Origin: an uncultured Methanosarcinales archaeon
Lineage (GTDB): Archaea > Nanobdellota > Nanobdellia > Woesearchaeales > ARS49
Direction of reading: 5' to 3'
DNA: 64,000 bases
Assembly (NCBI GenBank): GCA_964637115.1
Contig: CAZWVL010000008.1
Location: 6,932 to 70,931 of the forward strand
Part shown: piece by piece, positions 17,984 through 32,805 of the stretch
Layout: each line of letters begins with the position of its first letter
Position numbering within the stretch: position 1 is the first letter of the stretch
The notes under the pieces: model-generated
Seen by the model: only the letters and a program-made list of their open reading frames with translations
What the model was told of the DNA's origin: nothing
The model's database searches: none
Made by a program: the position numbers and the translations under genes

Positions 17984-18400
17984 ATCTGCTTTCATTCCAA
18001 CCCGAATATTTTTCTTCTCAGCAGCGCCTGCATTCAATTCAAGAACATACTTTGCAGGCTTTTCAGACGGATAAGTAGGACACGGATCAGCCTTGCACGG
18101 CAAGACATTGGCTTTAACTTCAACAACCATCATATTGCCGTCAAGAAAAATCATGTCCAGCGGAATTAATGTATTCTTCATCCAGAATGTTTTTGAAGAT
18201 TCTTCATTAAAGATGAACAACATGCCGTGATTTTCAGGCATTGACTCACGAAACATCAAACCTTTACTCTGTTCTGCAGGAGTACGGGCAATCTCAATTT
18301 CAAAAGAAACGCCATTGTCGAATGTAACCATTGGTATTGATGCGCACGCGGCTAACAACAACAAAAAAATTATTTCTTTAATCCCATGCTGCTTTTCCAA
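17972..18400 (-). CDS. DUF192 family lipoprotein
   Basis: GLMFRESM..GMLF, FWMKNTLIPLDMIF, YVLELNAG; lipobox LLAAC; TTG start with GAGGTG RBS. Confidence 0.88.
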   Translation of the reverse strand: MEKQHGIKEIIFLLLLAACASIPMVTFDNGVSFEIEIARTPAEQSKGLMFRESMPENHGMLFIFNEESSKTFWMKNTLIPLDMIFLDGNMMVVEVKANVLPCKADPCPTYPSEKPAKYVLELNAGAAEKKNIRVGMKADLRE

Positions 18401-19068
18401 ATCGGCACCTCATACGACATAGGCTCTTTTTCAAGTTTCAAGATACCAGCATCAATCAAGTCATCAATGTTCACCATATCCTTTGCAGAATCAGGAATTC
18501 TAGGACAGGCAGTGTTAACCCAATAGTCAATGAAAGTAAAGTTCTCAAACTCAGACATGTCAAGCTCATCGCAGGCAAAAATAAAGTATTCCTTGTCAGC
18601 TTTCTTCTGCAACTCCAATGCACGCATCAAGTTTTTCTGGCCAATCTTTGTCGTAACAATAATGCCAACCCTCTTTGCGTGCAAAAAATTGTTCAACTGG
18701 CCAAGCTTAAGCTTACGCCAATCATCAACACGCTTCTTGTCCAACAAGCCAAACTCTTTAGCCACAGGATTCCACAAATAAACCGGCTGTGAAGTCATCA
18801 TTGCAACCTGAACAGGATGAAACTCGCCAGAACCAACAAACAGCCATTGGTCAACATCTTTCTTGATTTTTTCAGCAGCAGAAGCATTGCAGCCAAGAAC
18901 CTGGCCGGCAAGCATAGCGTGCTCCAACTGCTGGATAATATCTGCCATCTTATGCTGATGCTGGATTGTAGTCACAACACCCCACCTGCCCTTCGGCAGC
19001 TTCTTCAGAACACTTTCCGGCATCCTAACGTCAAGATTGCTCTTGGCATGAACGTGCATCAGTTTCAT
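18370..19068 (-). CDS. dph2: Diphthamide synthesis protein Dph2, short form
   Basis: TTIQH, GQVLGC, GSGEFHP, K.GQ, NTACPRI. Confidence 0.85.
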   Translation of the reverse strand: MKLMHVHAKSNLDVRMPESVLKKLPKGRWGVVTTIQHQHKMADIIQQLEHAMLAGQVLGCNASAAEKIKKDVDQWLFVGSGEFHPVQVAMMTSQPVYLWNPVAKEFGLLDKKRVDDWRKLKLGQLNNFLHAKRVGIIVTTKIGQKNLMRALELQKKADKEYFIFACDELDMSEFENFTFIDYWVNTACPRIPDSAKDMVNIDDLIDAGILKLEKEPMSYEVPIWKSSMGLKK

Positions 19069-19185
19069 AACAAAGAAATCGACGAGAGTCTTTTAAAAAG
19101 GTTTCGACAGTAAGTTCAAACTATCCTGAAAGGCACGACTTTAGGACTGGATAAAAAGGTAGGACTTCTTGATGGTGTTCAAGTC

Positions 19186-20457
19186 TTAGTCAGGACTAAA
19201 TCCCGCTTTCACGGCGCTCGCATTCTGGTCCTGTTTGTAATATGACGTCATCTGTTTTTTCCATCTATCAAATTCTGCCCAGGTCATGGCGCGATTTTCT
19301 GGCGCTATGCCAAGCTTGGCGCATGCCCATTCGTAGAGCCTGATAAAAACACGATAGTTACGACTCTCTGTTTGCTTATCTACCCAATATTTAGTGCTCA
19401 TTATGTGTTCGGAAGGATAACTTTCCACACGAACGATATCCTGCTTGCTACTCATTAGATTGTTTAATTCATTGATTGGAAATCTTTGTGTTCCTATGAT
19501 TATATCGGGCATTTTTTTGCCCTCGTTTTTGAGAAGTCCAAGTCCGATTGTGAAAAACATAAGCCTACCGATGTAATAGGTCGTGTGTGGATTGGCGACA
19601 CCAAGGTGATCATAGTAGTATTGTTCTGCCTTTTTTGTTTTGGTTATATGCGAGAGTGCTTCCATGTGCGCTTTGAATTCATTTATCCATACTTTATTGA
19701 AGTCAACGAGACGAACATATTGTTTGTCCAAAAATTCACCCCCTCCTTCGCTGAGAAGTTCGAACATGCTTGCGTAAAGCGTAATGATTGCTGGATTGGC
19801 CAGTTTTTCCCCTAATGCTTTGAGCTTGTTTCTGAATTTTTCTTCAAATGCAAATGCACCTTTTACATTCTCATAATGGTGCTGACCAATTTCGTGGAAG
19901 AAATACTTGTAAACCGTTGGGTAGTCAAATTTGCCGAGATAATAGAATGGTCCGACGATACGTTCAACGACCCATAAACCATTGAAGTAGACGTAAACCT
20001 CTTTTATGTTTGAAAGGTCTTGCTTGTAGTCTCCGTACCAGTCGCGATATTCGGCTTTCGGTGGTCGTATTATGTGTATGTGCATGTGAAAATCATCGTC
20101 TGTTACAGCGTGGGACGCGTCTCGAAGGGCTGCTTGAATGGAAATAAAAAGCATTCTTGAAGAGATGTCGATAAAGTCTTTCCATGTTGGTGCAGGTTTT
20201 TGCCCAAGAAGTTGAGTAATTTTGCTGTAGATTTTGTACTCCTTTTCATATGTCCCAGTTTTCATGTCAAGATAGGTTTCTTCTCTTTCTGGTTCTTTTA
20301 GGTGGTGTGAAACAAATAGTTGCCAATCTGATGCGAAATCCTGCGGGCGATAGCTGCGCACGTCTTCAGCCTCATATCCTGTTTGACCATACGTGATTGT
20401 AACAGTGACTTTTTTATCGTGCACGGGAAAAGTTGTAGTTCTGGTCTCAACTGGCAT
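19186..20457 (-). CDS. Hypothetical protein, possible gluzincin-like metallopeptidase
   Basis: FFHEIGQHH followed downstream by SEGGGEF; otherwise unrecognised. Confidence 0.55.
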   Translation of the reverse strand: MPVETRTTTFPVHDKKVTVTITYGQTGYEAEDVRSYRPQDFASDWQLFVSHHLKEPEREETYLDMKTGTYEKEYKIYSKITQLLGQKPAPTWKDFIDISSRMLFISIQAALRDASHAVTDDDFHMHIHIIRPPKAEYRDWYGDYKQDLSNIKEVYVYFNGLWVVERIVGPFYYLGKFDYPTVYKYFFHEIGQHHYENVKGAFAFEEKFRNKLKALGEKLANPAIITLYASMFELLSEGGGEFLDKQYVRLVDFNKVWINEFKAHMEALSHITKTKKAEQYYYDHLGVANPHTTYYIGRLMFFTIGLGLLKNEGKKMPDIIIGTQRFPINELNNLMSSKQDIVRVESYPSEHIMSTKYWVDKQTESRNYRVFIRLYEWACAKLGIAPENRAMTWAEFDRWKKQMTSYYKQDQNASAVKAGFSPD

Positions 20458-20603
20458 ATATGATTTAAGTCTCCACCTTTCTTTTTAAATATTCTCAAGA
20501 TACAGAAGAATCCTTCACCTTCTTGAACAGTTCGAAAAGGTCGACTATAAAAAGAGTTTTTAGGACTGTAGGAAAAGGCGAGAGATTTATTTGTTTAATA
20601 GTT

Positions 20604-21766
20604 GTTAGTTTCAATCGGAAGAAAGGGCTAATCTAATTGGGCAAGTTTACAAACTTTTTTATACATAGTTCATATAACCTAAAACATGAACGAAAATAGA
20701 AAATCTGGATACGTTGCAGGGGGAATATTTTTATTAGTTGGTATTCTTATTACTGTTGTAGGATTTGATTCAGGTTGGAATTCTGGAAAAATTACAATTA
20801 TCGTTGGTGTCTTTTTCACTCTGCTTGGTATTGGGGGAATTTGGAAACCAGACATTATAGGTCAACCACTTGCTCACTATCTTAAACAAGTTGCTGAGAA
20901 CCAGAAATCTGAATCAATTTCGCAGAATCAGAAAAAAACTAAAAATAGCACTCAGGCAATAGCAAAAGATCATTCTAATGTAACTGTACAAAATAACTAT
21001 TATAAATCTGATCTTCCAGAAGAAAAAACATCAGATGAAAAAAAAGAATTAATAAAAGAGATTGGTCAAGAGTTAACAAAAGAAAAATTATCTAACACAC
21101 TAATAAAGTGTATACGATTGGCTAATTTAATTAATTCTAAAAAAGATGTTTTTTGGCTTGAGAATGAAGCTCAAGGATTTGATGAGAGGACTCGTGGGAA
21201 AATTAAAGATGAAGAAATACCAGATTATAGAATTATAAATACAGAGATTAGATTAGCAAGTACCGCAGATATTGGTTATACCCCTCTTAATTATAAATTA
21301 ACTTTAGGTAGCCCAATATTTCAAATAGAAGAATGGATAGAATCTTATAATAAAACAACTTCTCCTGGTGAAATGATATTGACAGCTCCAATGACCGAAG
21401 CATTTAAAAAAATATATAGAGAATCTTTTCAGAAAAACCCTCCATCTGAGAAAATACCGTATATCATTTCAATAAGTGAATTAAAAAAGATTTTAAATGG
21501 AGTAAAATTAAGAATAAATACGTTTATTTCTTCAATAAAGTAAACTTGCCCTTAATTCTTGTTCTTTATGTATCGCATTCGCTTATTGAATAGAATGCTC
21601 TTTCTCTCGACTCTGCGGACGCAGGTTTTCGGAACTTCGTAACCGAAAACTAAACTAACAGGAATTTAACGGTTCGGAACGACCGCTTCGCTATTTTGCC
21701 AAGCAAAATTTGTCCCTCGCCCAAATTTGCTCCGCTACGCTCCGCAAACTTCGTTAAATTCCGGCG
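20604..21766 (+). mobile_element. Putative integron gene cassette 1
   Basis: Starts at G|TTAGTT (20604-20610) and ends in an attC-like site whose R'' AACTAAC is its exact complement; one AT-rich ORF inside. Confidence 0.65.
20686..21543 (+). CDS. Two-TM protein with AbiTii-like C-terminal domain
   Basis: LSNTLIKCIRLANL...WLENEAQGF...IPDYRII resembles the AbiTii pattern; AT-rich. Confidence 0.6.
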   Translation: MNENRKSGYVAGGIFLLVGILITVVGFDSGWNSGKITIIVGVFFTLLGIGGIWKPDIIGQPLAHYLKQVAENQKSESISQNQKKTKNSTQAIAKDHSNVTVQNNYYKSDLPEEKTSDEKKELIKEIGQELTKEKLSNTLIKCIRLANLINSKKDVFWLENEAQGFDERTRGKIKDEEIPDYRIINTEIRLASTADIGYTPLNYKLTLGSPIFQIEEWIESYNKTTSPGEMILTAPMTEAFKKIYRESFQKNPPSEKIPYIISISELKKILNGVKLRINTFISSIK

Positions 21767-21772
21767 TTATAT
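21653..21772 (+). other. attC-like recombination site
   Basis: AACTAAC-a-GGAATTTAACG ... CGTTAAATTCC-ggc-GTTATAT, with an 11-bp perfect inner inverted repeat and internal hairpins. Confidence 0.7.
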
Positions 21773-21782
21773 TTCAATTCGC

Positions 21783-22487
21783 CTACGCCTGCTTTAATAG
21801 AATTTTTGCTACTTTTTCTAATTCTTGAGAAGAGAATTTAATCTTTGATTCTTTATTTTGTATGTAATTACCTAATTGATCGACTTTTAAAACAGGAACA
21901 GTTGGATTATCACAATGCAAAATTACATTATCGTGTGTAAAAACCACTATTCCATCTACCCATATTCTTAATGACTTACTAAATATGTTTTTTGACTCAA
22001 CATATTGCTTTAATTTCAAAGCATTGCCTTTAACTTGTTTACTTGGACTTTTTATTTCGTGTTCTTCAGGGATTTTCCAGGTGTCTTTATATTGATACCA
22101 ATTATCTCCCTCACATCTAAGTTCTCCTTCAAAATTTTTTGTTTCTATAACAAAGATTCCATTACTGCCTAAAACTATATGGTCAATGTTACCATAACCA
22201 TCTGGTAAATTGACATCATTAATGAGGTAATAAGAATCTGGCAAATTTTGAAGGGATTCTATGGTTATCTGTTCGCCTTGTAGACCTCTACTATAATTCA
22301 TATAAAATTTAAAGAAAAATCCCCCAACCAATAACGAAATAACAAAAATATAAATTAGCGTAAAGTTCGTAATCAAAAATGAAATTAAAATCCCTACTCC
22401 CCCAATAGAAAAAAACATACTTGAAATATTTCTATATAATTTTGCTTTGTCTTCTAAATACGTTCCTGTTTCTTGTAAATTTTTCAT
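21783..22487 (-). CDS. NERD (nuclease-related) domain membrane protein
   Basis: Two N-terminal TM helices; G..GE, IDHIVLGSNGIFVIETKN, SPSKQ. Confidence 0.88.
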   Translation of the reverse strand: MKNLQETGTYLEDKAKLYRNISSMFFSIGGVGILISFLITNFTLIYIFVISLLVGGFFFKFYMNYSRGLQGEQITIESLQNLPDSYYLINDVNLPDGYGNIDHIVLGSNGIFVIETKNFEGELRCEGDNWYQYKDTWKIPEEHEIKSPSKQVKGNALKLKQYVESKNIFSKSLRIWVDGIVVFTHDNVILHCDNPTVPVLKVDQLGNYIQNKESKIKFSSQELEKVAKILLKQA

Positions 22488-22489
22488 TT

Positions 22490-22960
22490 TCAGTTATTGC
22501 TATCCTTGGGTGAAGCCATATGAACCACATCATCATCGTCGTCATCTATCACCATATGAGCCGCAACATCATCACTATCATCGTATATCTTTGAGTGAAG
22601 CCATATGAACCACCACAATAACATTATAGAAAAGAAGTCAATAGGATTGAAGAAGACGGAGCGAATATAAGTTCTCTCAGGACTTGAATAATGTTGAAAG
22701 ATGAAAAACGAGTAAAGATTGAGAAGGAGTGATATTGAAATAAGAACTATCATCAATTCTAAGAATAATTTATATATGATTGTTGAAACAGATAGTCTAG
22801 TTGTAACTTTTGTAACTTCTATAATCTTGCCTGACTCGTCGTATGTTGTTATCGTTTGTTCTCTTATCCAACCCAATAATTTTCTCAAAAATTCTCCAAA
22901 TCTGTTCTTTCCCATACCTTTCTCTTTCAAGTATGTTTTTGTTTTCTGAAGATTCTTCAT
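22490..22960 (-). CDS. Hypothetical membrane protein
   Basis: Two TM helices, acidic repeated tail, N-terminus resembles that of the NERD gene. Confidence 0.6.
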   Translation of the reverse strand: MKNLQKTKTYLKEKGMGKNRFGEFLRKLLGWIREQTITTYDESGKIIEVTKVTTRLSVSTIIYKLFLELMIVLISISLLLNLYSFFIFQHYSSPERTYIRSVFFNPIDFFSIMLLWWFIWLHSKIYDDSDDVAAHMVIDDDDDDVVHMASPKDSNN

Positions 22961-23125
22961 ATTATTAATAGTAAATTCTCTTCTCTTTAATACTTTCTGA
23001 ACGGCAGGCTACGGCGGACTTTGATTTTTTGCCTTCGGCATCGTAGTACTTCCTCTGCTTTTCACTACAGTTCGAAAAACTGCCTTTTTAAAGCCCTTCT
23101 TGAATAGTCCCTGAAGGTAGAGGAT

Positions 23126-23398
23126 CTAGGATGATTTTTTTCTTTGAAATAAAGACCAAATAACATAAACTAAGATCGCGGGAATAAGAATAATTACATC
23201 ACGCAAAAGGGTTTGCCCTAAAGACCAGCATGTACAAGGATCGATTGTAAAGAGCGCCATCATTCTATATATGTTTTGATAGTCTGGACATTGGGCAGGT
23301 AAACACGTTGCTTGAGAAAATAGACGGACAACATACCACCAAGGGACTGATGCAATAATCGATACAAACAATTTAGCTCTTGTAAAACGAAAGTTCAT
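23126..23398 (-). CDS. Small two-TM hypothetical protein with Cys-rich loop
   Basis: Hydrophobic ends; CLPAQCP..PCTC; Y.IWSL C-terminus. Confidence 0.65.
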   Translation of the reverse strand: MNFRFTRAKLFVSIIASVPWWYVVRLFSQATCLPAQCPDYQNIYRMMALFTIDPCTCWSLGQTLLRDVIILIPAILVYVIWSLFQRKKSS

Positions 23399-23542
23399 TG
23401 TTATAAATCACCAACTATTTTATTTAAATCTTTGGTAATCCTAGGGCAAAATTCTCACTTTTTCGGATAGTCTTTTAGCATATTAGAATAAAGCTTTGAA
23501 TAAACACCAACAATTAAATACGCAGTAATTAATTTCAAGAAA

Positions 23543-23734
23543 ATGGCGCTTTCAATCATCATCTTCATCGGCTTAATCATTCTGGCAGTGATTGCCCTAA
23601 AATTCCTTGGAGGAATGCTGCGCACGATTATTTCCACTGCACTCTTCATCATTGCAGCAGCATTCTTGCTGAAATGGTTCACGGGAACGGACTTGTTTGG
23701 AATAGCGGGATTTGTCACAGGCCTCTTACCTTAA
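23543..23734 (+). CDS. Small membrane protein
   Basis: 63 aa with two hydrophobic helices. Confidence 0.6.
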   Translation: MALSIIIFIGLIILAVIALKFLGGMLRTIISTALFIIAAAFLLKWFTGTDLFGIAGFVTGLLP

Positions 23735-25430: not shown

Positions 25431-28400
25431 TTATTTATTTCTACGAGAATACCAAATGCCTATAATTGCCAGAGCGATAAGGATAAGCAACAAAATCCAC
25501 CACAACCAGTTCACAGAACTGGGTTCAACTGCCACAGCGCCAGTAATTTCTCCTCCAGCAAATGAAGAGACCTGCTCAGGAATAAACGCCGGAATAGGCT
25601 TTTTTGATTCATCTGAAGCAAGCGTTGCGCCACCACCAAAACTGCCAGGTCCTGGCTGCGCAGCAGGAGCTGCTGCAGGTTCGCCTCCAGTAGGAGGACC
25701 GTGACCTGTTGAAAGAGGACGGTGACTCGAACCGCCACCTCCGCCGCCTCCACTACCGCCAACAGATGCAGGAGCAGGAGCTGCAACGACACTAACATTG
25801 CGTACGGCCTGTGCAGAATTTCCTGAAGAGTCAGTAACGTCGTAAGTAACATTATATGTGCCGACAACAGAAAAGTTAACGCCATTGGTTACAACAATAG
25901 ATCCTGTAACGTTTCCGTCAAAATTGTCTGAAGCTGTCGCGCTGGCGTCAACATAAGAAGAACCAACTGTGATTGTGGCCGGATTAGAGCCTAAGATAGT
26001 GATAACAGGAGGCGTTGTGTCAACAACATTAACAGTTCTCGTAACTTGAATTGCGACGTTACCTGAACTGTCAGAAACATCATACGTGACGATGTAAGCT
26101 CCTAAAATACTCGTGTCCACTGGGTTAACGGTCACAATTGAACCAGTAATATTGCCATCATAATTGTCATCGGCAGTTGCACCATCATCAACATAAACAC
26201 TGCCTGCTTCCACAGTCACAGGGTCAGAGCCAACCAAAGAAATAACTGGCAAAGTCGTATCAACAACGTTCACAGTTCTTGTGACTTGAACAGCAGAATT
26301 GCCTGAACTGTCAGAAACATCGTAAGTCACAGTGTAAACTCCAAGAGCACTCGTGTTAACAGGATTAACAACAACAATAGAACCAGTTAGATCACCATCA
26401 TAATTATCCAAAGCAGTAGCACCATCATCAACATAAACACTACCAACCTCAACAGTCACAGGATCACTACCAACCAAAGAAATAACTGGTAAAGTCGTAT
26501 CAACAACATTAACAGTACGAGTAACTTGAACAGCCGCATTGCCTGAACTGTCAGAGACATCATACGTCACGATGTAAGCGCCTAAAACGCTTGTATTAAC
26601 AGGATTAACTGTTACAATAGACCCCGATAAGTCACCGTCGTAATTATCCAAAGCAGTAGCACCATCATCAACATACACAGAACCAACCTCAACATTTACT
26701 GGAGTCGAACCAACTAAAGAGATAACTGGATCAGTAGTATCAACAACATTAACAGTACGCGTAACCTGAACTGCAGCATTGCTGGAAGAATCGGAAACAT
26801 CATAAGTCACGACGTAAGCACCAAGAGCACTAGTATTAACCGGATTCACAACAACAATAGAACCGGTAAGGTCGCCATCTCCAGCATCCAAGGCAGTCGC
26901 GCCATCATCAACATAAACACCGCCAACTTCCACAACAACAGGAGTTGAACCAGCTAACGTAATGACAGGAATACCAGTATCAACAACATTAACAGTACGC
27001 GTAACTTGAGTAGCCGCGTTACCAGAACTATCAGACACGTCATACGTCACGATATAAGCGCCAAGAACACTGGTATTCACAGGATTAACAACAACAATAA
27101 AGCTTGTTAGGTCGCCATCATAATTATCAAAAGCAGTCGCACCATCATCAACATAAACACTACCAACTTCAACATTCACAGGAGTTACGCCAACCAAAGA
27201 AATAACCGGATCAGTAGTATCAACAACATTAACAGTTCTCGTAACCTGAACAGCAGCATTACCAGAACTGTCAGACACGTCGTAAGTCACAATGTAAGCA
27301 CCAAGAGCACTGGTATTCACAGGATTAACAGTAACTATAGAGCCGGTAAGGTCACCATCTCCCGCATCAAAAGCAGTCGCACCATCATCAACATACACAG
27401 AACCAACCTCAACATTTACTGGAGTTGAACCTGTTAACGTGATAACCGGCACACTGGTGTCAACAACATTCACTGTACGCGTAACCTGAACTGCAGAATT
27501 ACCAGAACTATCAGAAACATCATAAGTTACGGTGTAAGCGCCAAGAGCACTGGTATTAACAGGATTAAAAGTAACAATAGCGCCAGTCAGATCACCATCG
27601 TAATTATCAAGAGCAGTTGCGCCATCATCAACATAAACGCTACCTACTTCTATATTTACTGGAGTTGAGCCAGCCAAAGAAATAACCGGATCAGTAGTAT
27701 CAACAACATTAACGGTACGAGTAACCTGAACAGCAGAATTACCAGAACTATCAGAAACATCATACGTAACAACATACGCGCCAACAACGCTCGTATTAAC
27801 AGGATCAACTGTTACGATAGAACCTGATAAGTCACCATCGTAATTATCCAAAGCAGTGGCACCGTCATCAACATAAGCGCCGCCTACCTCTATATTTACT
27901 GGAGTTGAACCAACCAAAGAAATCACAGGATCAGTAGTATCAACAACATTAACAGTACGCGTAACTTGAGCTGCGTCATTTCCAGCAACATCAGAAACAT
28001 CATAAGTAACTATGTACGCACCAACAACACTCGTGTTGACCGGATTGACAGTAACAATAGAACCAGTCAAATCACCGTCGTAATTATCAAGAGCAGTCGC
28101 ACCGTCATCAGAATAAACAGAACCAACTTCAACATTCACTGGAGTTGAACCAACCAAAGAAATAACCGGATCGGTAGTATCAACAACATTAACAGTACGC
28201 GTAACTTGAACCGCGTCATTTCCAGCAGCATCAGAAACATCGTAAGTCACGATGTAAGCGCCAAGAGCACTAGTATTAACAGGATTCACAACAACAATAG
28301 AACCGGTAAGGTCTCCGTCAACATTATCCAAAGCAGTGGCACCATCATCAACATAAGCGCTGCCTGCTTCTATGGTTACAGGAGTAGAACCAACAAGCGT

Positions 28401-28982
28401 GATAACAGGAGGTGTTGTATCTGGTGCACCTGCAACCTCAGTCAGGGTTCCGAGATTTGTTCCATTGGAAACTGAGGCAATTACTGACGTGCCCATCTTC
28501 GTGATGTTTCCGCTCGCCAAAGGCGATACCGCTGTCGGCCGCACACGGACATTCTGCCAGGTCAAACGATTCCTGACACCGCCGTTCGAAACATTCAAAA
28601 CCGTGAAAACAATCACTGTTGTGTTCACCGATGTAATATTAAGCGATGTGCCATTGGCTGCACTATTGATATTCTTTGTGTCAGGACCAGAACCGGCAGT
28701 CCTTTCCAACAACACCGTAACAGCCGGCGAGCCCGTGTCAAACTCAAAACCAGAAGGAATTTGAAGAATGATTGTTCCAGCTTTAATATCAGAAGCAGCA
28801 GTCTCGGCAAGAGCAGGCCCTGTAAGCGTTGTGTACGCGCCACCAACATCATCCGCTGAAATTGCCCCGCCACCAGTTGCTAGAGTTACTGTTGCAGCCG
28901 ATACAGCAACAGAGCTCAAAATAAACAAAAATGATAAAACAAGCAATCTAAGACAATCACGCGCCGGCTTCCAAGTGTACAT
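25431..28982 (-). CDS. Large surface protein with 11 Ig-like (DUF5011-type) repeats and a C-terminal TM anchor
   Basis: Signal peptide; DTTxPVISLVG...DGATALDNYDGDL...Y.VTYDVSDSSGN...RTVNVV repeats; Gly/Pro/Ala linker; ITG motif; TM followed by RRNK. Confidence 0.9.
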   Translation of the reverse strand: MYTWKPARDCLRLLVLSFLFILSSVAVSAATVTLATGGGAISADDVGGAYTTLTGPALAETAASDIKAGTIILQIPSGFEFDTGSPAVTVLLERTAGSGPDTKNINSAANGTSLNITSVNTTVIVFTVLNVSNGGVRNRLTWQNVRVRPTAVSPLASGNITKMGTSVIASVSNGTNLGTLTEVAGAPDTTPPVITLVGSTPVTIEAGSAYVDDGATALDNVDGDLTGSIVVVNPVNTSALGAYIVTYDVSDAAGNDAVQVTRTVNVVDTTDPVISLVGSTPVNVEVGSVYSDDGATALDNYDGDLTGSIVTVNPVNTSVVGAYIVTYDVSDVAGNDAAQVTRTVNVVDTTDPVISLVGSTPVNIEVGGAYVDDGATALDNYDGDLSGSIVTVDPVNTSVVGAYVVTYDVSDSSGNSAVQVTRTVNVVDTTDPVISLAGSTPVNIEVGSVYVDDGATALDNYDGDLTGAIVTFNPVNTSALGAYTVTYDVSDSSGNSAVQVTRTVNVVDTSVPVITLTGSTPVNVEVGSVYVDDGATAFDAGDGDLTGSIVTVNPVNTSALGAYIVTYDVSDSSGNAAVQVTRTVNVVDTTDPVISLVGVTPVNVEVGSVYVDDGATAFDNYDGDLTSFIVVVNPVNTSVLGAYIVTYDVSDSSGNAATQVTRTVNVVDTGIPVITLAGSTPVVVEVGGVYVDDGATALDAGDGDLTGSIVVVNPVNTSALGAYVVTYDVSDSSSNAAVQVTRTVNVVDTTDPVISLVGSTPVNVEVGSVYVDDGATALDNYDGDLSGSIVTVNPVNTSVLGAYIVTYDVSDSSGNAAVQVTRTVNVVDTTLPVISLVGSDPVTVEVGSVYVDDGATALDNYDGDLTGSIVVVNPVNTSALGVYTVTYDVSDSSGNSAVQVTRTVNVVDTTLPVISLVGSDPVTVEAGSVYVDDGATADDNYDGNITGSIVTVNPVDTSILGAYIVTYDVSDSSGNVAIQVTRTVNVVDTTPPVITILGSNPATITVGSSYVDASATASDNFDGNVTGSIVVTNGVNFSVVGTYNVTYDVTDSSGNSAQAVRNVSVVAAPAPASVGGSGGGGGGGSSHRPLSTGHGPPTGGEPAAAPAAQPGPGSFGGGATLASDESKKPIPAFIPEQVSSFAGGEITGAVAVEPSSVNWLWWILLLILIALAIIGIWYSRRNK
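25785..28421 (-). repeat. Intragenic tandem repeat, 11 x 240 bp
   Basis: 80-aa units, visible as a 240-bp period in the nucleotide sequence. Confidence 0.9.
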
Positions 28983-29087
28983 GTGTTCTCCGAGGATAAC
29001 TTAGGCAATAGCGTTATAAGTCAGTGTGTCCCCCCGGTAGGTAACACAAGGAAAGCATTTATAAACGCACACGCCACCCTATGAGCA

Positions 29088-29840
29088 ATGGAAGGACGTT
29101 TGCGGGAGATAGGGTTTACCCCTGGAGAGGAAAAAGTCTACCTTGCCTTGCTGACACTGGGCAACTCAACTTCAGGCACAATCGCAAAGCACGCAGGAGT
29201 TTCAAGATCAAAACTATACGAAATTCTTGAAAGACTATCAAAAAAAGGATTGGTGAGCCATATTAAGCGAAATAATATTCTTTGTTTCAGCGCGGCCCAT
29301 CCTAGAAGAATTCTAGACCATATCAGAAAAAAAGAAGAATTGTTAAGATACCAGAGATCATCGTTTGAGAAAACTCTTCCTTTTTTTAAAAATTTCATGA
29401 AAGAAAAAAAATCCCATGGAGAAATCGAGTTCTTTGAAGGAAACGAAGGCATAAAAAACGTCTGTGAAACATTCCTAAGAAAATCCAAACCCGGCGATTC
29501 ATTCTACGAGTTCGGAAACTCATCATCAGGCTATACAGACATGCTCGGATATTGGGATGACTTCAGCAAAAGGCGCGCTCAAAAAAAAGTTCGGGCTCTG
29601 CAAATATTCAATCAGGATGCAAAACGCTTCGGAGAACGCCGCAAAAACTTAGCTTATACACAAGTCAAATATCTGCCCAAAGCAGGACCAACGCATTCAC
29701 GAGTCGTGATATACGGAAATGACAGCGTATCCATTACGACGCGACACAAAACTCCAATGACCATCATTATAAGCAACAGACTTGTTGCAGAAAGCTTCAA
29801 GACATATTTTGATGTTCTGTGGGATGCGTCCGCGGAATAA
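29088..29840 (+). CDS. TrmB-family transcriptional regulator
   Basis: GFTPGEEKVYLALL..G..SRSKLYEILERL..KGLV; C-terminal FKTYFDVLW. Confidence 0.88.
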   Translation: MEGRLREIGFTPGEEKVYLALLTLGNSTSGTIAKHAGVSRSKLYEILERLSKKGLVSHIKRNNILCFSAAHPRRILDHIRKKEELLRYQRSSFEKTLPFFKNFMKEKKSHGEIEFFEGNEGIKNVCETFLRKSKPGDSFYEFGNSSSGYTDMLGYWDDFSKRRAQKKVRALQIFNQDAKRFGERRKNLAYTQVKYLPKAGPTHSRVVIYGNDSVSITTRHKTPMTIIISNRLVAESFKTYFDVLWDASAE

Positions 29841-29933
29841 ACCATGAAAGTGTGAACGAAAAAGAATCGCGACACTTAGCTATTGATGCTGTTCAGAAAG
29901 CCTTATAAACCCACCTTCTCGAAATATCCTCAC

Positions 29934-30275
29934 ATGAGCAAGAAAGAAGAACAACAACAGCAACAACAACAGCAAGAGGAAGAAATAAGAAGAACGCCCA
30001 TTCCTCGAGGCAGACAAGTTCTAGGCGTTTGCGAACAAAGAGTAGGCGGCAGCAGAATGAAAGTGCGCTGCATGGACGGAAAGATGCGCATCTGCAGGAT
30101 TCCCGGCAGATTAAAACGAAAATTATGGGTGAGAGAAGGCGACATTTTATTAATAGAACCATGGGAATTAGGCGGAGACGAGAAAGGAGATGTTGTCTTC
30201 AAATACAGACCAATACAGGTTGAGCTCCTGAAGAGAAAAGGAATGCTCAAAGAAATAATGCAGGAAGAGTTCTAG
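29934..30275 (+). CDS. eif1a: Translation initiation factor 1A
   Basis: GGSRMKVRCMDGKMRICRIPGRLKRKLWVREGD..EPW; N-terminal poly-Q. Confidence 0.95.
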   Translation: MSKKEEQQQQQQQQEEEIRRTPIPRGRQVLGVCEQRVGGSRMKVRCMDGKMRICRIPGRLKRKLWVREGDILLIEPWELGGDEKGDVVFKYRPIQVELLKRKGMLKEIMQEEF

Positions 30276-30324
30276 AAGCACATGCAAATGGCAGGGTTGA
30301 TGATTGCAGTCAAAATATGATTTC

Positions 30325-31485
30325 TTACTCCTCGTGCGTGTATGGAACAATCCTCTTCAAAATAACGTCGCAAACTTTTTTTGTTGCATAAACGCCTCCT
30401 ATGAATAGGCCACAGTCTATCAGTGTTGGAGAATTAGCCGCGGCAAATAAACTATATGCGCCAGCGCCCCCATAATAAGCAACATTAAGTGTGACAAAGT
30501 GCCTTAAAGTCTCCAAGGGATCCACATCTGGGCGGTCTTCTGGTTCAATTTTATCGAGGTCATCTTTCTTACCCTCAGCCTTCAGTTTTGCTCGCTGTAA
30601 CATTTTTTTGCTTAAGTACAAACCTGCAAGAATGTAAGTTGTGAAGGCTGGGATTAGGTAACGATAAAATTGATTGCGGTCCTCTTCATGAAGGCTGCCA
30701 TGTCCATGCTTACTTGCGTTCCATTCTTGGTGAAGCATCAATGGTGGAAACACCCTTCCCAAGAGATATTCCCAGTCAGAGTCGAAGCGTTGGCTATCTT
30801 GGTGATGCCCGATTTCATGTGCAATAATAGATTCAACGTTGCTATACACAACAACAGTTTTGGTCATTGGATTGTAATAATCTCCGCGGGCAAATTCAGC
30901 CCAAATCTCATCTTTGAAAGCTATCAGGCTGCCGAGCGTTAGTCGTGCAAATAAATTGTTTCTTTTAGAAAGATTGTCTTCTGCAAACATGCGGTACCAA
31001 TCGTAAAAAGCTTCATTGTGGTTCAATCTTACTGTGATATCTTTTATGCTTGTATCATTTTCCAATAATGCAAGTGCCGTTTTTGCTCTCTTTGCATCAA
31101 GACCCCAACCAACACCCAAATCTCCAAAGTACACTTTTCCTGGAATGCACATAACATGACCGATGAGGCGTGAAGGCAACCAGTCGGCGTCATTAACAAT
31201 GGTATATCGATCAGTCTCGATAGTAAATGGCTTTGAAAAATCAATTTCAGAAGTGCTCACTATGTTCTCAAGAGTTTGCGGATTTTTCTGCTCTGGCTCT
31301 TCTTCAGGTTTTGTTTTGCTTTTTTGAAAGAATGTCGCCTTCTTTATGTGCATTTCAGAAGGAAGCGTATATTTTTGTTCAGTTGGTGTTGATCCAGAAC
31401 CTCCTGTAAAGAGATACCAAGTGTACAATCCGCCAAAAAAGGCGATTTTTCGCCAATTCCTTTTCAGGAAGTCACCGAAACCCAT
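30325..31485 (-). CDS. Membrane protein with HExxH zinc-peptidase motif
   Basis: IIAHEIGHHQD...QEWNAS; several TM segments. Confidence 0.65.
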   Translation of the reverse strand: MGFGDFLKRNWRKIAFFGGLYTWYLFTGGSGSTPTEQKYTLPSEMHIKKATFFQKSKTKPEEEPEQKNPQTLENIVSTSEIDFSKPFTIETDRYTIVNDADWLPSRLIGHVMCIPGKVYFGDLGVGWGLDAKRAKTALALLENDTSIKDITVRLNHNEAFYDWYRMFAEDNLSKRNNLFARLTLGSLIAFKDEIWAEFARGDYYNPMTKTVVVYSNVESIIAHEIGHHQDSQRFDSDWEYLLGRVFPPLMLHQEWNASKHGHGSLHEEDRNQFYRYLIPAFTTYILAGLYLSKKMLQRAKLKAEGKKDDLDKIEPEDRPDVDPLETLRHFVTLNVAYYGGAGAYSLFAAANSPTLIDCGLFIGGVYATKKVCDVILKRIVPYTHEE

Positions 31486-31583
31486 ATAGAATAAACTATA
31501 CAGAGTTATTTATTAAGTTTTCTATTTTTAGTCATTTATTAGTAGTTACTATTTGAACAAACGCTCTTATCAAGCATCAAAAT

Positions 31584-31844
31584 CTAGTAACCCAACTCTC
31601 TCCAAACATCTCGCGGCTTCTCGTTGGGATACTGGCACTTGGGCTCCCGCATCCAATCACTGTAAGCATAACAACTGCCCGTGCACTGCCTGTAACGGAA
31701 GCCGATATGATGCTCGTCATACTCGCAACTGCCAACAAAGTAACACTGACAGGACTGGCTCATGCTGCCTTCAACAGCAACAAAAAGAAACAAGACTAAA
31801 GCAACAACAACAGTAATGCCAAACAGCGAGCGCATCACGTTCAT
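31584..31844 (-). CDS. Small secreted Cys-rich protein
   Basis: Signal peptide followed by 6 Cys. Confidence 0.55.
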   Translation of the reverse strand: MNVMRSLFGITVVVALVLFLFVAVEGSMSQSCQCYFVGSCEYDEHHIGFRYRQCTGSCYAYSDWMREPKCQYPNEKPRDVWRELGY

Positions 31845-31875
31845 ACTATAGTATAGAGAATAAGGCTATTTAAGA

Positions 31876-32805
31876 TTATTTGACGTACTCGCCAGTAGGA
31901 GTACCGCCAGTAACGTAACGATACGCTTCCAAAACAGCAACAGCGCCCATCCCTGCGCTGATAACAGTCTGCTTGTGAGGAACAACAGTAACATCACCAC
32001 ACGCATACAATCCAGGAGTTTTTGTCTTGCACAAAATATCAACAACAATCTCACCAATAGCATTAACGTCTACCAATCCATCAACCATTTTGGTGTGAGC
32101 ATCCCAGCCAATCTCTGAAAAAATGCCCTGCACTAAAAGTTCACGACGCTTTTTCGTGTTCACATCCTCAATGATAAGAGATTTCACAAATTTGTCACCA
32201 GTAATTTCAACAGGAATATGATTTGTAATGATTTCAATCTTCAGATCTTTTTTTGCGTGCTCGACTGTGACTTCATCCGCTCTAAATTTATCGCGCCTAT
32301 GCACAAGATAAACCTTTTTTGCAATACGAGAAAGCTCTAAAGCTCCCTCCAGCGCACTGTTGCCGCCGCCAATAACTACCGTGTCTTTATTTGGAAATAA
32401 AGGCGCGTCACAAGTGGTGCAGGTGCTTAATCCTCTTCCGAAGAACTTGTCCTCACCAGGAATGTTCAGCTTTCTTCTTTCACGGCCATAACACAGAATG
32501 ATGGTTTTTGATTCTAGCTTGCTGCCATCATTCAACTCAATTGAGAAATTCTTTGTTTTTGTAATCTTCGCAACCATTGCTTCATTAATCTCGCAGCCCC
32601 ACTTCTTTGCAGAAGACCAGAACTTTTTCATCAATTCAGGGCCAGGACCTTCATAGCCAGGATAATTCTGAATATCATTAGTAGTATTTGTCTCGCCGCC
32701 GATGTTTGGACCAGTAATTAAAATGCATTTCAGCTTCTTCCTGCCGGCATAAATTGCAGCTGTCAAACCAGCAGCGCCAGCCCCAACAATAACTACGTCG
32801 TACAT
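31876..32805 (-). CDS. trxB: Thioredoxin reductase
   Basis: GAGAAG, CTTCD redox motif, GGGNSA, HRRDKFRA, GLYACGD. Confidence 0.93.
   Translation of the reverse strand: MYDVVIVGAGAAGLTAAIYAGRKKLKCILITGPNIGGETNTTNDIQNYPGYEGPGPELMKKFWSSAKKWGCEINEAMVAKITKTKNFSIELNDGSKLESKTIILCYGRERRKLNIPGEDKFFGRGLSTCTTCDAPLFPNKDTVVIGGGNSALEGALELSRIAKKVYLVHRRDKFRADEVTVEHAKKDLKIEIITNHIPVEITGDKFVKSLIIEDVNTKKRRELLVQGIFSEIGWDAHTKMVDGLVDVNAIGEIVVDILCKTKTPGLYACGDVTVVPHKQTVISAGMGAVAVLEAYRYVTGGTPTGEYVK

Follow-up and report, generated by a model that had tools for sequence, protein, structure and literature searches.

A probable stranded fragment of an integron-like gene-cassette system in a Woesearchaeota-type archaeon

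The locus analyzed here is probably a stranded piece of a gene-cassette system, integron-like in its logic, in circulation among Woesearchaeota-type archaea. It lies in a 64,000-nucleotide stretch of archaeal DNA (the window), in which a first-pass annotation, made from the letters alone, had seen an integron-like cassette array without an integrase. We call it stranded because the genome contains no tyrosine recombinase and only one, slightly decayed, full site; for the same reason, the mechanism proposed below is borrowed from other genomes. Matches to the site also occur upstream of related recombinases in candidate-phyla bacteria, which suggests that the system extends to these organisms. 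The locus comprises the following features (window coordinates).

19108..23500, no strand: whole inserted island, between a Dph2-like gene (18370-19068, minus) and a small membrane-protein gene (23543-23734, plus)
19186..20457, minus: 423-aa ORF (p423) of no known family, GC 41.6%
20509..20582, plus: conserved element resembling a promoter, with the imperfect palindrome CTTCTTGAACAGTTCGAAAAG and, after it, a TATA-like box CTATAAAAAG, facing cassette 1
20585..20603, plus: attI-like left half-site TTTGTTTAATAGTT, immediately 5' of the first GTTA
20604..20651, plus: cassette 1 leader, with outer clasp GTTAGTTTC (20604-20612), conserved CAATCGGAAGAAAGGGCTAA and inner clasp arm GGGCAAGTTTAC (20640-20651)
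20686..21543, plus: cassette 1 cargo, a 285-aa protein with a hydrophobic N terminus and an AbiTii domain, GC 29.6%
21541..21659, plus: cassette 1 trailer, with inner clasp arm GTAAACTTGCCC (21541-21552, overlapping the stop codon), module M0 (21545-21598), hairpins P1 (21613-21617/21620-21624) and P2 (21625-21632/21643-21650) and left box AAACTAAC (21652-21659)
21660..21772, plus: site proper (M2), with outer stem GGAATTTAACG (21661-21671) / CGTTAAATTCC (21752-21762) and right box GTTATAT (21766-21772)
21766..23100, plus: cassette 2, with its cargo on the minus strand, namely a NERD protein (21783-22487, minus) and a 156-aa membrane protein (22490-22960, minus)
23126..23398, minus: 90-aa ORF of unknown function, within the island and past the recognisable cassette end

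The island of about 4.4 kb has a GC content of 35.2%, compared with 42.8% for the whole window; cassettes 1 and 2, at 32.5% and 31.5%, are indeed AT-rich, as the first-pass annotation had it. That annotation placed the island at 20604-23040; the insertion is real, but its true extent is larger on both sides. Likewise, two cassettes are present, but with only two in the window the word "array" is generous. An empty site, which had been proposed as a check, was found in relatives: in eight genomes of the same genus the flanking genes lie only 50-440 bp apart and there is no insertion, while in one further same-genus genome a different insert lies there and the distance is 1 kb. The empty-site joint (position 19107 joined to 23501) was also present in contigs of runs X7 and X8, and contigs from runs X9 and X10, which belong to other studies, matched pieces of 22371-23058 with 0-1 differences; they leave some parts of the island uncovered, which we do not take as absence. 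All joints in the compared contigs were either whole-island empty sites or module swaps from other organisms; no circular junction or excised form of a single cassette was seen in them. A tRNA scan of the window returned nothing.

The motifs that had drawn attention to the locus (GTTAGTT at 20604-20610, AACTAAC at 21653-21659, GTTATAT at 21766-21772 and the outer stem) are all at the places given for them, and both GTT boxes run on into T(T)TCAAT. The outer stem is prolonged by GTT/AAC across a conserved TT bulge (AAC-TT-CG), and an asymmetric A / GAT internal loop separates the box from the stem. Inside, M2 holds the inner stems P4 and P5, a conserved single-stranded CCCAAATT and a variable hairpin. 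The 120-nt palindrome of the first-pass annotation is thus real and resembles a recombination site, but the whole site is larger and also takes in a leader, a trailer and two hairpins upstream; the full element spans 21541-21772. With the nhmmer profiles M1 (matched in the trailer) and M2 (the site proper), the window gave matches at E 1.1e-11 and, for 21653-21777, E 7.2e-31, respectively. The window site departs from the family consensus by two changes in P4, by GGC instead of GAT before GTTA and by an extra T before CAAT. When the bottom strand was folded, as had been suggested, a free energy of -25.3 kcal/mol was obtained (z -2.7; equalled by 2 of 200 shuffles); for the top strand it was -21.5 kcal/mol (z -3.1; 0 of 200).

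The inverted 7-mer pair GTTAGTT/AACTAAC on which the original observation was built is present, but taken alone it occurs at chance frequency (6 in the window on both strands, 7.8 expected), and GTTANNNNCAAT occurs 5 times in the window against 2.7 expected. The match between the boxes reaches 8 of 9 bases (GTTAGTTT at 20604-20611 with AAACTAAC). The significance of this match comes from comparison with other genomes and not from the window alone.

A BLAST search with the 256-nt element against 401 genomes sampled from the same order gave matches in 143 of them (G000 included), but in none of the seven genomes of its own family. Hence the element is not a core gene, and similar sites do exist in relatives. 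The element keeps a GC content of about 40-45% in hosts of 30% and of 60% GC, and in many other families it is 70-95% identical at the nucleotide level, whereas the neighbouring RNase H-like core protein is only 44-56% identical. At 15 of the 16 loci with at least two M2 hits the hits are on the same strand, spaced 0.1-6 kb apart; this recurrence in same-direction arrays bears out the view that the element is recombination-site-like and not a local accident. Many copies sit at contig ends. Site lengths range from 82 to 208 nt (median 111), and minimal sites exist (TAACA GGGCCCGA TGTTA, with an 8-bp spacer), which are equally compatible with a folded site and with an ordinary double-stranded core site. 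A cassette can carry as many as four genes in an operon, of either orientation, and the cargo varies (of 20 ORFs sampled, 13 have matches to unrelated Pfam families). CALINs have been delimited by at least two attC sites less than 4 kb apart (PMC9668308); contig G101:C2 holds seven sites at such spacing, while a single M2 site was found in our window and, indeed, in its whole genome. The suggested search for further palindromes in this genome was negative: neither blastn-short nor nhmmer found a second copy of the site.

The structure of the site is upheld by covariation. Paired cells made up 89.2% in the alignment versus 72.1% in shuffles (0 of 500 as high), and double changes were seen in 30 of 41 pairs (slid controls, 34-53%). 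Six helices covary; for the upstream hairpins, this is the case for three of the five pairs of P1 and seven of the eight of P2. Among 1092 cells there were 24 G:T and 35 A:C wobbles, and such similar counts give no sign of an RNA-strand bias.

A second regularity, the clasp rule, ties each site to the first bases of its own cassette. The outer clasp consists of the GTTA and five following bases after one site and the box of five bases and TAAC of the next site (9 nt). Of 28 neighbouring site pairs, 19 were reverse-complementary here over at least 8 of the 9 nt, including 17 over exactly 9. In 2000 random draws the control count was 1.7 on average and never above 7. A left box matched its own adjacent right box at only 3 of 47 sites. 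The claim that the left box pairs with the first bases of its own cassette and not with the adjacent R' is therefore confirmed, both elsewhere and at 8 of 9 positions in the window. The rule fails in nine of the 28 pairs, some of which may hide missed sites between them. Further inside, each cassette has a private inverted repeat of 12-16 nt (the inner clasp). The score of leader and trailer of the same cassette averaged 13.7, compared with 8.3 for foreign combinations; the own partner was the best in 13 of 20 cases, and an exact repeat of at least 12 nt was present in 17 of 20 (12 nt in the window). Because such a repeat is private to each cassette, we consider the cassette ends to be two halves of one long hairpin. 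Consistently, the window trailer and site folded at -47.8 kcal/mol with their own leader but at -35.3 kcal/mol with the leader of the neighbour; with 47 foreign leaders the average was -35.7 kcal/mol, and one was as low as the own leader.

The absence of an integrase from this genome was confirmed: PF00589 had no match in the assembly (98% complete), and tblastn with three array-linked recombinases gave nothing below E 0.5. PF00589 was also unmatched in three of five congeners. Elsewhere, complete arrays begin beside a divergent Xer-like tyrosine recombinase of 264-283 aa. Its gene was present in 7 of 30 contigs fetched for the element alone, and also at locus L058, always on the 5' side and divergent; conversely, all 13 M2 hits within 80 recombinase loci were upstream and divergent. 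A contig end lay within 1 kb upstream of the recombinase at 38 of the 80 loci versus 12 of 80 downstream. In the one array-linked recombinase that we aligned to VchIntIA (2A3V), about 45 residues are missing at the IntI-specific domain, with query residues 173-198 standing opposite IntI residues 174-244. Against TIGR02249, the array-linked enzymes scored 169-183 bits in two stretches, below the cut-off of 265; their best match was the archaeal XerA model NF040815, at 197-199 bits, again below its cut-off (220). They form a clade of moderate support in a quick tree (SH-aLRT 82). In two genomes (G203 and G387) a second paralogue with no array nearby falls into a different clade. Many of the closest relatives of the array-linked enzyme, at about 40% identity, are from candidate-phyla bacteria. 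The integron reading of the first-pass annotation therefore holds for the cassette logic, but the linked enzyme is a short Xer-like recombinase and not IntI. Integrases of 426-431 aa in two congeners (G003 and G006) were also considered; there were no sites in their neighbourhoods.

At the head of the locus, the element at 20509-20582, which is promoter-like and may serve as such, is 91% identical to a sequence in G003:C2 and 84% identical to one in G013:C50, both of the same genus. The half-site TTTGTTTAATAGTT is similar to junctions near the genes of array-linked recombinases, at 50-190 nt from the start codon (CTTAATACAT/GTTA at L108, CTTAATACCT/GTTA at L050, TGTAATACAT/GTTA at L092 and CCTAATATAT/GTTA at L058), as well as CTCAATAGTT/GTTA in the same-genus genome G013. 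The 423-aa ORF has the place and direction of the recombinase gene in complete platforms. Its product was considered as a possible recombinase substitute: it had no match in Pfam, NCBIfam or PADLOC, and its best PHROGs value was 0.14. With this query it was not found in any of 14 same-genus genomes, and its one relative (23-25% identity) is in another family; in a protein atlas it fell into unnamed clusters, and a single weak lead pointed to a collagenase-like family (0.87; carried by 17% of members).

Cassette 1 is complete and AbiTii-like, as had been supposed, with leader, cargo, trailer and site. Its leader also follows sites in G039, G026 and G295, but with different cargo after it. The AbiTii domain (PF18864) was matched by residues 121-283 of the cargo protein at E 1.5e-16 (61.6 bits; gathering score, 27.6), and PADLOC called AbiTii at 4.6e-16. 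The second ORF call was upheld as well, with a NERD domain (PF08378) at E 2.5e-23 (83.1 bits; gathering score, 22.1); this protein has only partial likeness to the N-terminal domains of the MADS6 and PglW kinases. Cassette 2, in which the NERD and membrane genes are antisense, does lack its site: no left box or closing site could be recognised, and there was nothing convincing near 23080-23100. It has kept its private inner inverted repeat (21827-21840/22972-22985, exact over 14 nt, and 17/19 nt in another comparison) and a trailer remnant (23017-23075); the piece 23017-23108 matches trailers of at least ten other genomes. When the five island proteins were compared by tblastn with loci fetched from other genomes, no AbiTii, only a weak NERD match and one relative of p423 were found; no cassette was seen at two places. 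The 90-aa ORF had no family match and no tblastn match in the loci of ten relatives. The AbiTii, NERD and membrane genes together look like a small defence islet, a role predicted from their domains. Outside the island, a chain of three clasp links was noticed at 26355-31984, in and around a 1183-aa ORF (estimated chance in the genome, about 0.02).

These results can be accommodated in a model in which a cassette is made of leader, cargo, trailer and folded site. In the free form, which is probably circular, the leader would pair with the trailer around the site to give one long hairpin, whose innermost variable pairing would be the 9-bp box (five private bases and TAAC against GTTA and five private bases). 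Strand exchange by the tyrosine recombinase encoded at the array head would then take place in the conserved TAACA/TGTTA core or close to it, on single- or double-stranded DNA. After insertion, the GTTA half with its five bases and the leader would open the cassette, and the trailer, left box and site would close it. Under this model our locus would be an array head (the attI-like half-site and the promoter-like element), a complete AbiTii-like cassette and a NERD cassette lacking its closing site, set between two core genes. Because no recombinase gene was found and the site departs from the family consensus, the cassettes of this genome are probably immobile now and act only as a defence islet.

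An alternative is a canonical integron remnant (CALIN), with ordinary attC sites and a true IntI, equipped with the IntI-specific domain, acting in trans. Boxes that end in TAAC (52 of 55 left boxes) and begin with GTTA (48 of 48 right boxes, by construction of the search), together with the site lengths given above, speak for it; so does the right box half, which travels with the next cassette as the integron rule demands, and archaeal integrons and CALINs, some of them in Nanoarchaeota, have been published (PMC9668308). We nevertheless consider it unlikely. RYYYAAC fits only 19 of 55 left boxes and GTTRRRY only 17 of 48 right boxes (the window boxes AACTAAC and GTTATAT each fit the attC consensus at 6/7). 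The two upstream hairpins, CCCAAATT and the private inner inverted repeat are conserved parts unknown in attC, and every array-adjacent recombinase is short, the aligned one lacking the residues of the IntI-specific domain. In addition, the archaeal integron survey reported 539 attC sites (Ghaly et al., 2022, PMC9668308), with 75 of 6718 archaeal genomes positive, whereas in a single order 143 of 401 genomes have our element. The first-pass annotation had noted that the spacers deviate from canonical attC and had proposed a site type of its own; we call the system integron-like for its logic and do not assign it to the integron family.

Other explanations dispense with cassettes altogether. 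A conserved, structured non-coding RNA gene, or a 3' UTR or terminator element between convergent genes, would account for the strong covariation of six helices, for the conservation of some unpaired motifs and for the position of the element in the window, between the ends of two convergent genes. However, no Rfam family exceeded its gathering score in the window, and locally, at E up to 10, only four sub-threshold matches at chance level were obtained; G:T and A:C wobbles are about equally frequent, unlike in a structure of the transcribed strand; and an RNA would explain neither a clasp rule that ties the site to a cassette start 0.1-6 kb away nor sites standing head-to-tail upstream of a recombinase gene. 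We regard this explanation as very improbable. The chances are slimmer still for a miniature transposable element or transposon end that uses hairpins in the manner of IS200/IS605, with TAAC and TCAA as cleavage sites. Subterminal hairpins, the short tetranucleotides conserved at either end of the site and the many copies at contig ends would suit it, but the window's island holds no transposase gene, the element is single-copy in this genome, copies elsewhere are not scattered but stand in arrays of one orientation with a linked tyrosine recombinase, and the private complementary ends bracket the cargo and not the element. Finally, the 7-mer pair at chance frequency in the window and the lack of a second copy in the genome would be expected of a chance palindrome in horizontally acquired AT-rich DNA with coincidental motif matches. 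This is scarcely credible: it is refuted by the covariation and clasp statistics and by the spread through 143 of 401 genomes, and the identity of the element across families far exceeds that of the neighbouring core protein.

We are thus left with an integron-like cassette system, and in the literature we found no description of a folded-site cassette system with a short Xer-like recombinase. On balance we lean, with some reserve, towards an undescribed system common to DPANN archaea and candidate-phyla bacteria, and perhaps to some Paenibacillus and Flavobacterium, which would have its own short Xer/IntI-like recombinase clade without the extra domain and, for each free cassette, a split hairpin of about 275 nt whose halves lie at opposite ends once the cassette is integrated. 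Here, integron cassette logic goes together with a recombinase lacking the extra domain (one example aligned) and a much larger folded site, and the element is frequent, in about one-third of the sampled genomes of one archaeal order. If the mechanism is true, the capture of cassettes at folded sites would be recognised outside IntI systems, the exchange of defence and accessory genes among ultra-small symbiotic cells over large distances would have a testable model, and a common cause of contig breaks and of "GC-rich ORF-free islands" in such genomes would be explained. If the system is indeed a new one, it would be a sister to integrons that may show the ancestral Xer-to-IntI transition, and ultra-small cells would have in it a major route for gene flow, also of defence genes. 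For this genome, it accounts for the origin of the small AbiTii/NERD defence islet.

Among known systems, the "Cand" subgroup comprises simple Xer-related tyrosine recombinases of candidate phyla that have been treated as probable Xer substitutes (Smyshlyaev et al., 2021, PMC8138268). The array-linked enzymes resemble it in being short and Xer-like, and many of their closest relatives are from candidate-phyla bacteria; they differ in their cassette arrays, no link to which was found in the published account of the subgroup (PMC8138268). From archaeal XerA, which resolves chromosome dimers, they differ in missing the NF040815 cut-off and, in G203 and G387, in not being a single housekeeping copy.

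The array-linked enzymes share with Xer-dependent mobile elements a recombinase of the Xer family on mobile DNA. Such elements include CTX phage, whose folded single-stranded attP mimics a recombination site, and the pdif modules of Acinetobacter plasmids; they use the housekeeping XerCD of the host at dif or dif-like sites. The right box, of the ATGTTAAAT type, resembles the XerD arm of E. coli dif. In contrast to our system, these elements are not known to build co-oriented cassette arrays headed by a recombinase gene, and the array-linked paralogue here is in a clade separate from the other paralogue (two genomes).

Integrons are the textbook gene-capture device, and what defines their integrase is an additional domain for reading folded attC sites. 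The system described here is like them in its co-oriented arrays, whose cassettes are promoter-poor, vary in cargo and mostly hold one to a few genes, and in the hairpin-forming site that closes each cassette, with boxes that end in AAC or begin with GTT and a right half that belongs to the next cassette. It is also like them in the divergent tyrosine recombinase and insertion point at the array head, in the many arrays with no recombinase nearby, and in the imperfect hairpin fold of the site, with its unpaired bases (the TT bulge and the A/GAT loop). It differs in its aligned recombinase, which is without the IntI-specific insert; in a 9-bp box with invariant TAAC/GTTA; in the two extra upstream hairpins and the conserved single-stranded motifs of the site; in private leader-trailer stems that would give a hairpin of about 275 nt on the free cassette; and in its multigene cassettes, whose operons may have as many as four genes and run either way.

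The island separates genes that are neighbours in close relatives. When the window's ORFs were searched by tblastn against this neighbourhood in ten relatives, synteny was conserved on both sides of the island, and the five island ORFs gave no match there. In eight same-genus genomes, 50-440 bp separate the Dph2-like from the small membrane-protein gene, which provides the empty site that the first-pass annotation had proposed to look for; in a ninth, this position holds a different insert of 1 kb. Contigs of two sequencing runs join 19107 to 23501, and the island therefore occupies 19108-23500; these contigs probably come from relatives, given a likeness threshold of 85% and flanking sides of just 22-30 nt. 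The insert is thus real, but larger than the 20604-23040 given at first. At the same intergenic spot, compared genome G012 (locus L029, contig G012:C78) carries an unrelated 1-kb insert, and G011 (L024, G011:C15) has 150 nt of hairpin-rich filler with GACGTTTCAATTCGC, similar to the leader (cassette start) of cassette 2; insertions may recur here.

Open reading frames of the island (ORF calls and family searches)
19186-20457, minus strand: 423-aa ORF, no known family
20686-21543, plus strand: AbiTii-domain protein (cassette 1)
21783-22487, minus strand: NERD protein (cassette 2)
22490-22960, minus strand: membrane protein, 156 aa (cassette 2)
23126-23398, minus strand: ORF, 90 aa

All motifs listed in the first-pass annotation are present at their coordinates. 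From left to right, the island consists of the 423-aa ORF, a promoter-like element, an attI-like half-site, cassette 1, a palindromic site, cassette 2 and about 400 bp with the 90-aa ORF, which are unexplained. GC content of 20604-23100 is 31-33%, versus 42.8% for the whole window. The promoter-like element, an imperfect palindrome plus a TATA-like box (window 20509-20582), is 84-91% identical in two congeners, at unrelated loci (L055 4977-5050; L056 6848-6915), and its 3' part recurs in diverged form at 19140-19170. Three to four imperfect tandem repeats of 27-31 nt at 22501-22627 lie in the stretch coding for the acidic C-terminal part of the membrane protein. Outside the island, three chained GTTA+5 / 5+TAAC links occur in and around a 1183-aa ORF (26355-31984; estimated chance in the genome ~0.02), a region without site hits.

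BLAST of the island against 60 relatives gave matches in its non-coding parts only. They are 70-95% identical and come from other families of the order; over the same distance, identity of a neighbouring core protein is just 44-56%. Among 401 genomes sampled from the order, 143 had a match to a 256-nt query (21535-21790), a count that takes in the source genome and two unpublished genomes; in the window's own family none of seven genomes had one. Many of these matches are located at contig ends.

Modules of the site, from alignments
Trailer (M0)
Two hairpins, P1 and P2
Left box, ending in TAAC
Long outer stem with a conserved TT bulge
Two inner stems
Conserved motif CCCAAATT
Variable hairpin
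Conserved end, GAT-GTTA-N5-AAT

Of 48 sites, 41 have GTTA-N5-AAT and 37 have GAT; the window's site is off the consensus at stem P4, in the triplet before GTTA and by one extra T. The inverted 7-mer alone occurs at chance frequency (6 copies, 7.8 expected). On either strand, including the bottom one singled out at first, the window palindrome folds more stably than shuffles. Across 27 sequences, 89.2% of cells pair versus 72.1% in shuffles (none of 500 as high), slid partners gave 34-53%, and 30 of 41 pairs have changes on both sides. Non-Watson-Crick cells comprise 24 G:T and 35 A:C among 1092; the signature of a transcribed strand is thus absent. A DNA hairpin accounts for this better than an RNA does. 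Two loci (L108 7270-7300; L051, about 7400) have minimal sites, TAACA GGGCCCGA TGTTA, whose spacer is 8 bp long and which lack a hairpin; they look like an ordinary duplex core site. Hybrid sites in L087 (G240:C2) and L088 (3069-3163) have left and right outer-stem arms from different subfamilies, implying recombination inside sites.

With nhmmer profiles of two modules, co-oriented series of sites spaced 0.1-6 kb apart were detected in other contigs, for example seven in G101:C2 and seven along G387:C18. The G101 array is a block of 31-36% GC, and the adjacent genes of that genome have about 60%. The left box had been proposed to pair with the first bases of its cassette rather than with the adjacent right box. 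For every neighbouring site pair in the long loci (n=28), we compared the nine bases GTTA+5 that follow one site with the reverse-complemented left box of the next. At least eight bases matched in 19 pairs, 17 of them exactly nine (random left boxes: mean 1.7, maximum 7 in 2000 draws), and a site's own left box matched its own GTTA+5 in just 3 of 47 cases. Hence the proposed pairing, which we call the clasp, holds for most pairs; in the window 8 of 9 bases match.

A second, cassette-specific inverted repeat brackets the cargo. Leader and trailer of the same cassette score 13.7 on average versus 8.3 for foreign pairs, the own pair being best in 13 of 20 cassettes, and an exact inner repeat of at least 12 nt is present in 17 of 20. 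In cassette 1 the repeat is GGGCAAGTTTAC (20640-20651) with GTAAACTTGCCC (21541-21552), and in cassette 2 it is 21827-21840 with 22972-22985. Trailer plus site folds at -47.8 kcal/mol with the cassette's own leader, at -35.3 with the neighbour's, and at -35.7 +/- 2.6 with 47 foreign leaders, one of which is as low as the own.

As first described, cassette 1 is complete and cassette 2 has lost its site; cassette 2 retains leader, inner repeat and a trailer remnant, and its left box is also absent. Pieces of cassette 2 are also covered, with 0-1 differences, by contigs that two other studies produced; a recent spread of this cassette would be compatible with that. Elsewhere the cargo is diverse: five arrays were sampled for 20 cassette ORFs, of which 13 have matches in Pfam families unrelated to one another (polyprenyl synthetase, C39 peptidase, HAD, DUF5680, TPR, TrmB twice, acyltransferase, S51 peptidase, HAD-like phosphatase, MFS, HIT, NYN, GmrSD) and 7 match none. 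Some cassettes hold an operon, with four genes at most and in either orientation.

The earlier description of the locus as lacking an integrase also held. The source genome (1.27 Mb, 98% complete) has no match to PF00589, and tblastn with three array-linked recombinases, the short Xer-like tyrosine recombinases heading complete arrays elsewhere, gave nothing below E 0.5. PF00589 is also missing in three of five congeners (G013, G007, G011), and therefore the lineage seems to lack XerA. Because the assembly is without the enzyme, the window's cassettes are probably now fixed. The 423-aa ORF has the same place and orientation as the recombinase gene in complete platforms. It contains a HEIGQH motif and has one relative, 23-25% identical, in another family (G036:C46).

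A tyrosine recombinase gene is present in 7 of 30 contigs fetched solely for containing the element, and in locus L058; in every case it sits 5' of the array, in divergent orientation. Conversely, 80 loci fetched by recombinase query yielded 13 site hits in nine loci, all upstream and divergent, five of the nine being titled candidate-phyla or unclassified bacteria; 38 of the 80 end within 1 kb upstream versus 12 downstream. Junctions of the form TTAATAnnT/GTTA lie 50-190 nt from the recombinase start, and the window's counterpart is TTTAATAGTT/GTTA. For two array-linked enzymes the archaeal XerA model was the best match, under its cut-off. One, aligned to VchIntIA, is without about 45 residues at the IntI-specific domain and shares the C-terminal SPLD-type tail. 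In a quick tree that left out IntI and Xer outgroups, the Woesearchaeal array-linked enzymes cluster together with moderate support (SH-aLRT 82): nine have arrays, seven have flanks too short to judge and none is without an array. Second paralogues of G203 and G387 fall elsewhere, with no sites near them. Where two paralogues are present, the array-linked enzyme looks like a dedicated paralogue, not the housekeeping XerA.

Sites upstream of the recombinase in two loci of candidate-phyla bacteria (L125, L147) have the box architecture of the archaeal sites, and those of L147 also CCCAAATT and AACTTC motifs; this likeness suggests common origin or cross-domain exchange. Related recombinase genes of Paenibacillus solani, P. 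barcinonensis, Flavobacterium silvisoli and F. enshiense are also adjoined, on their downstream side, by two to nine cassettes chained through clasps (L181 10930-19233; L167 10346-20446; L183 13905-18438; L179 4476-5800). In L181, sites are ~120-165 nt with common ends TAACA...CGTTA.

Full-text literature searches yielded no report of cassette arrays headed by Xer-like recombinases, either in DPANN or in candidate-phyla organisms, and excerpts of Néron et al., 2022 and Smyshlyaev et al., 2021 (PMC8138268) do not mention arrays of this type. Among 6718 archaeal genomes, Ghaly et al., 2022 (PMC9668308) report 75 with IntI-type integrons and CALINs, which possibly overlap with the window's family. 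The original observation is confirmed, and its interpretation is supported, with corrections. Compared with integrons, the IntI-specific domain is absent, as judged from the one aligned enzyme, and the window has fewer than the two or more sites that the CALIN criterion asks for, but the cassette logic is the same. We conclude that the locus belongs to an integron-like system and is a stranded member of it.
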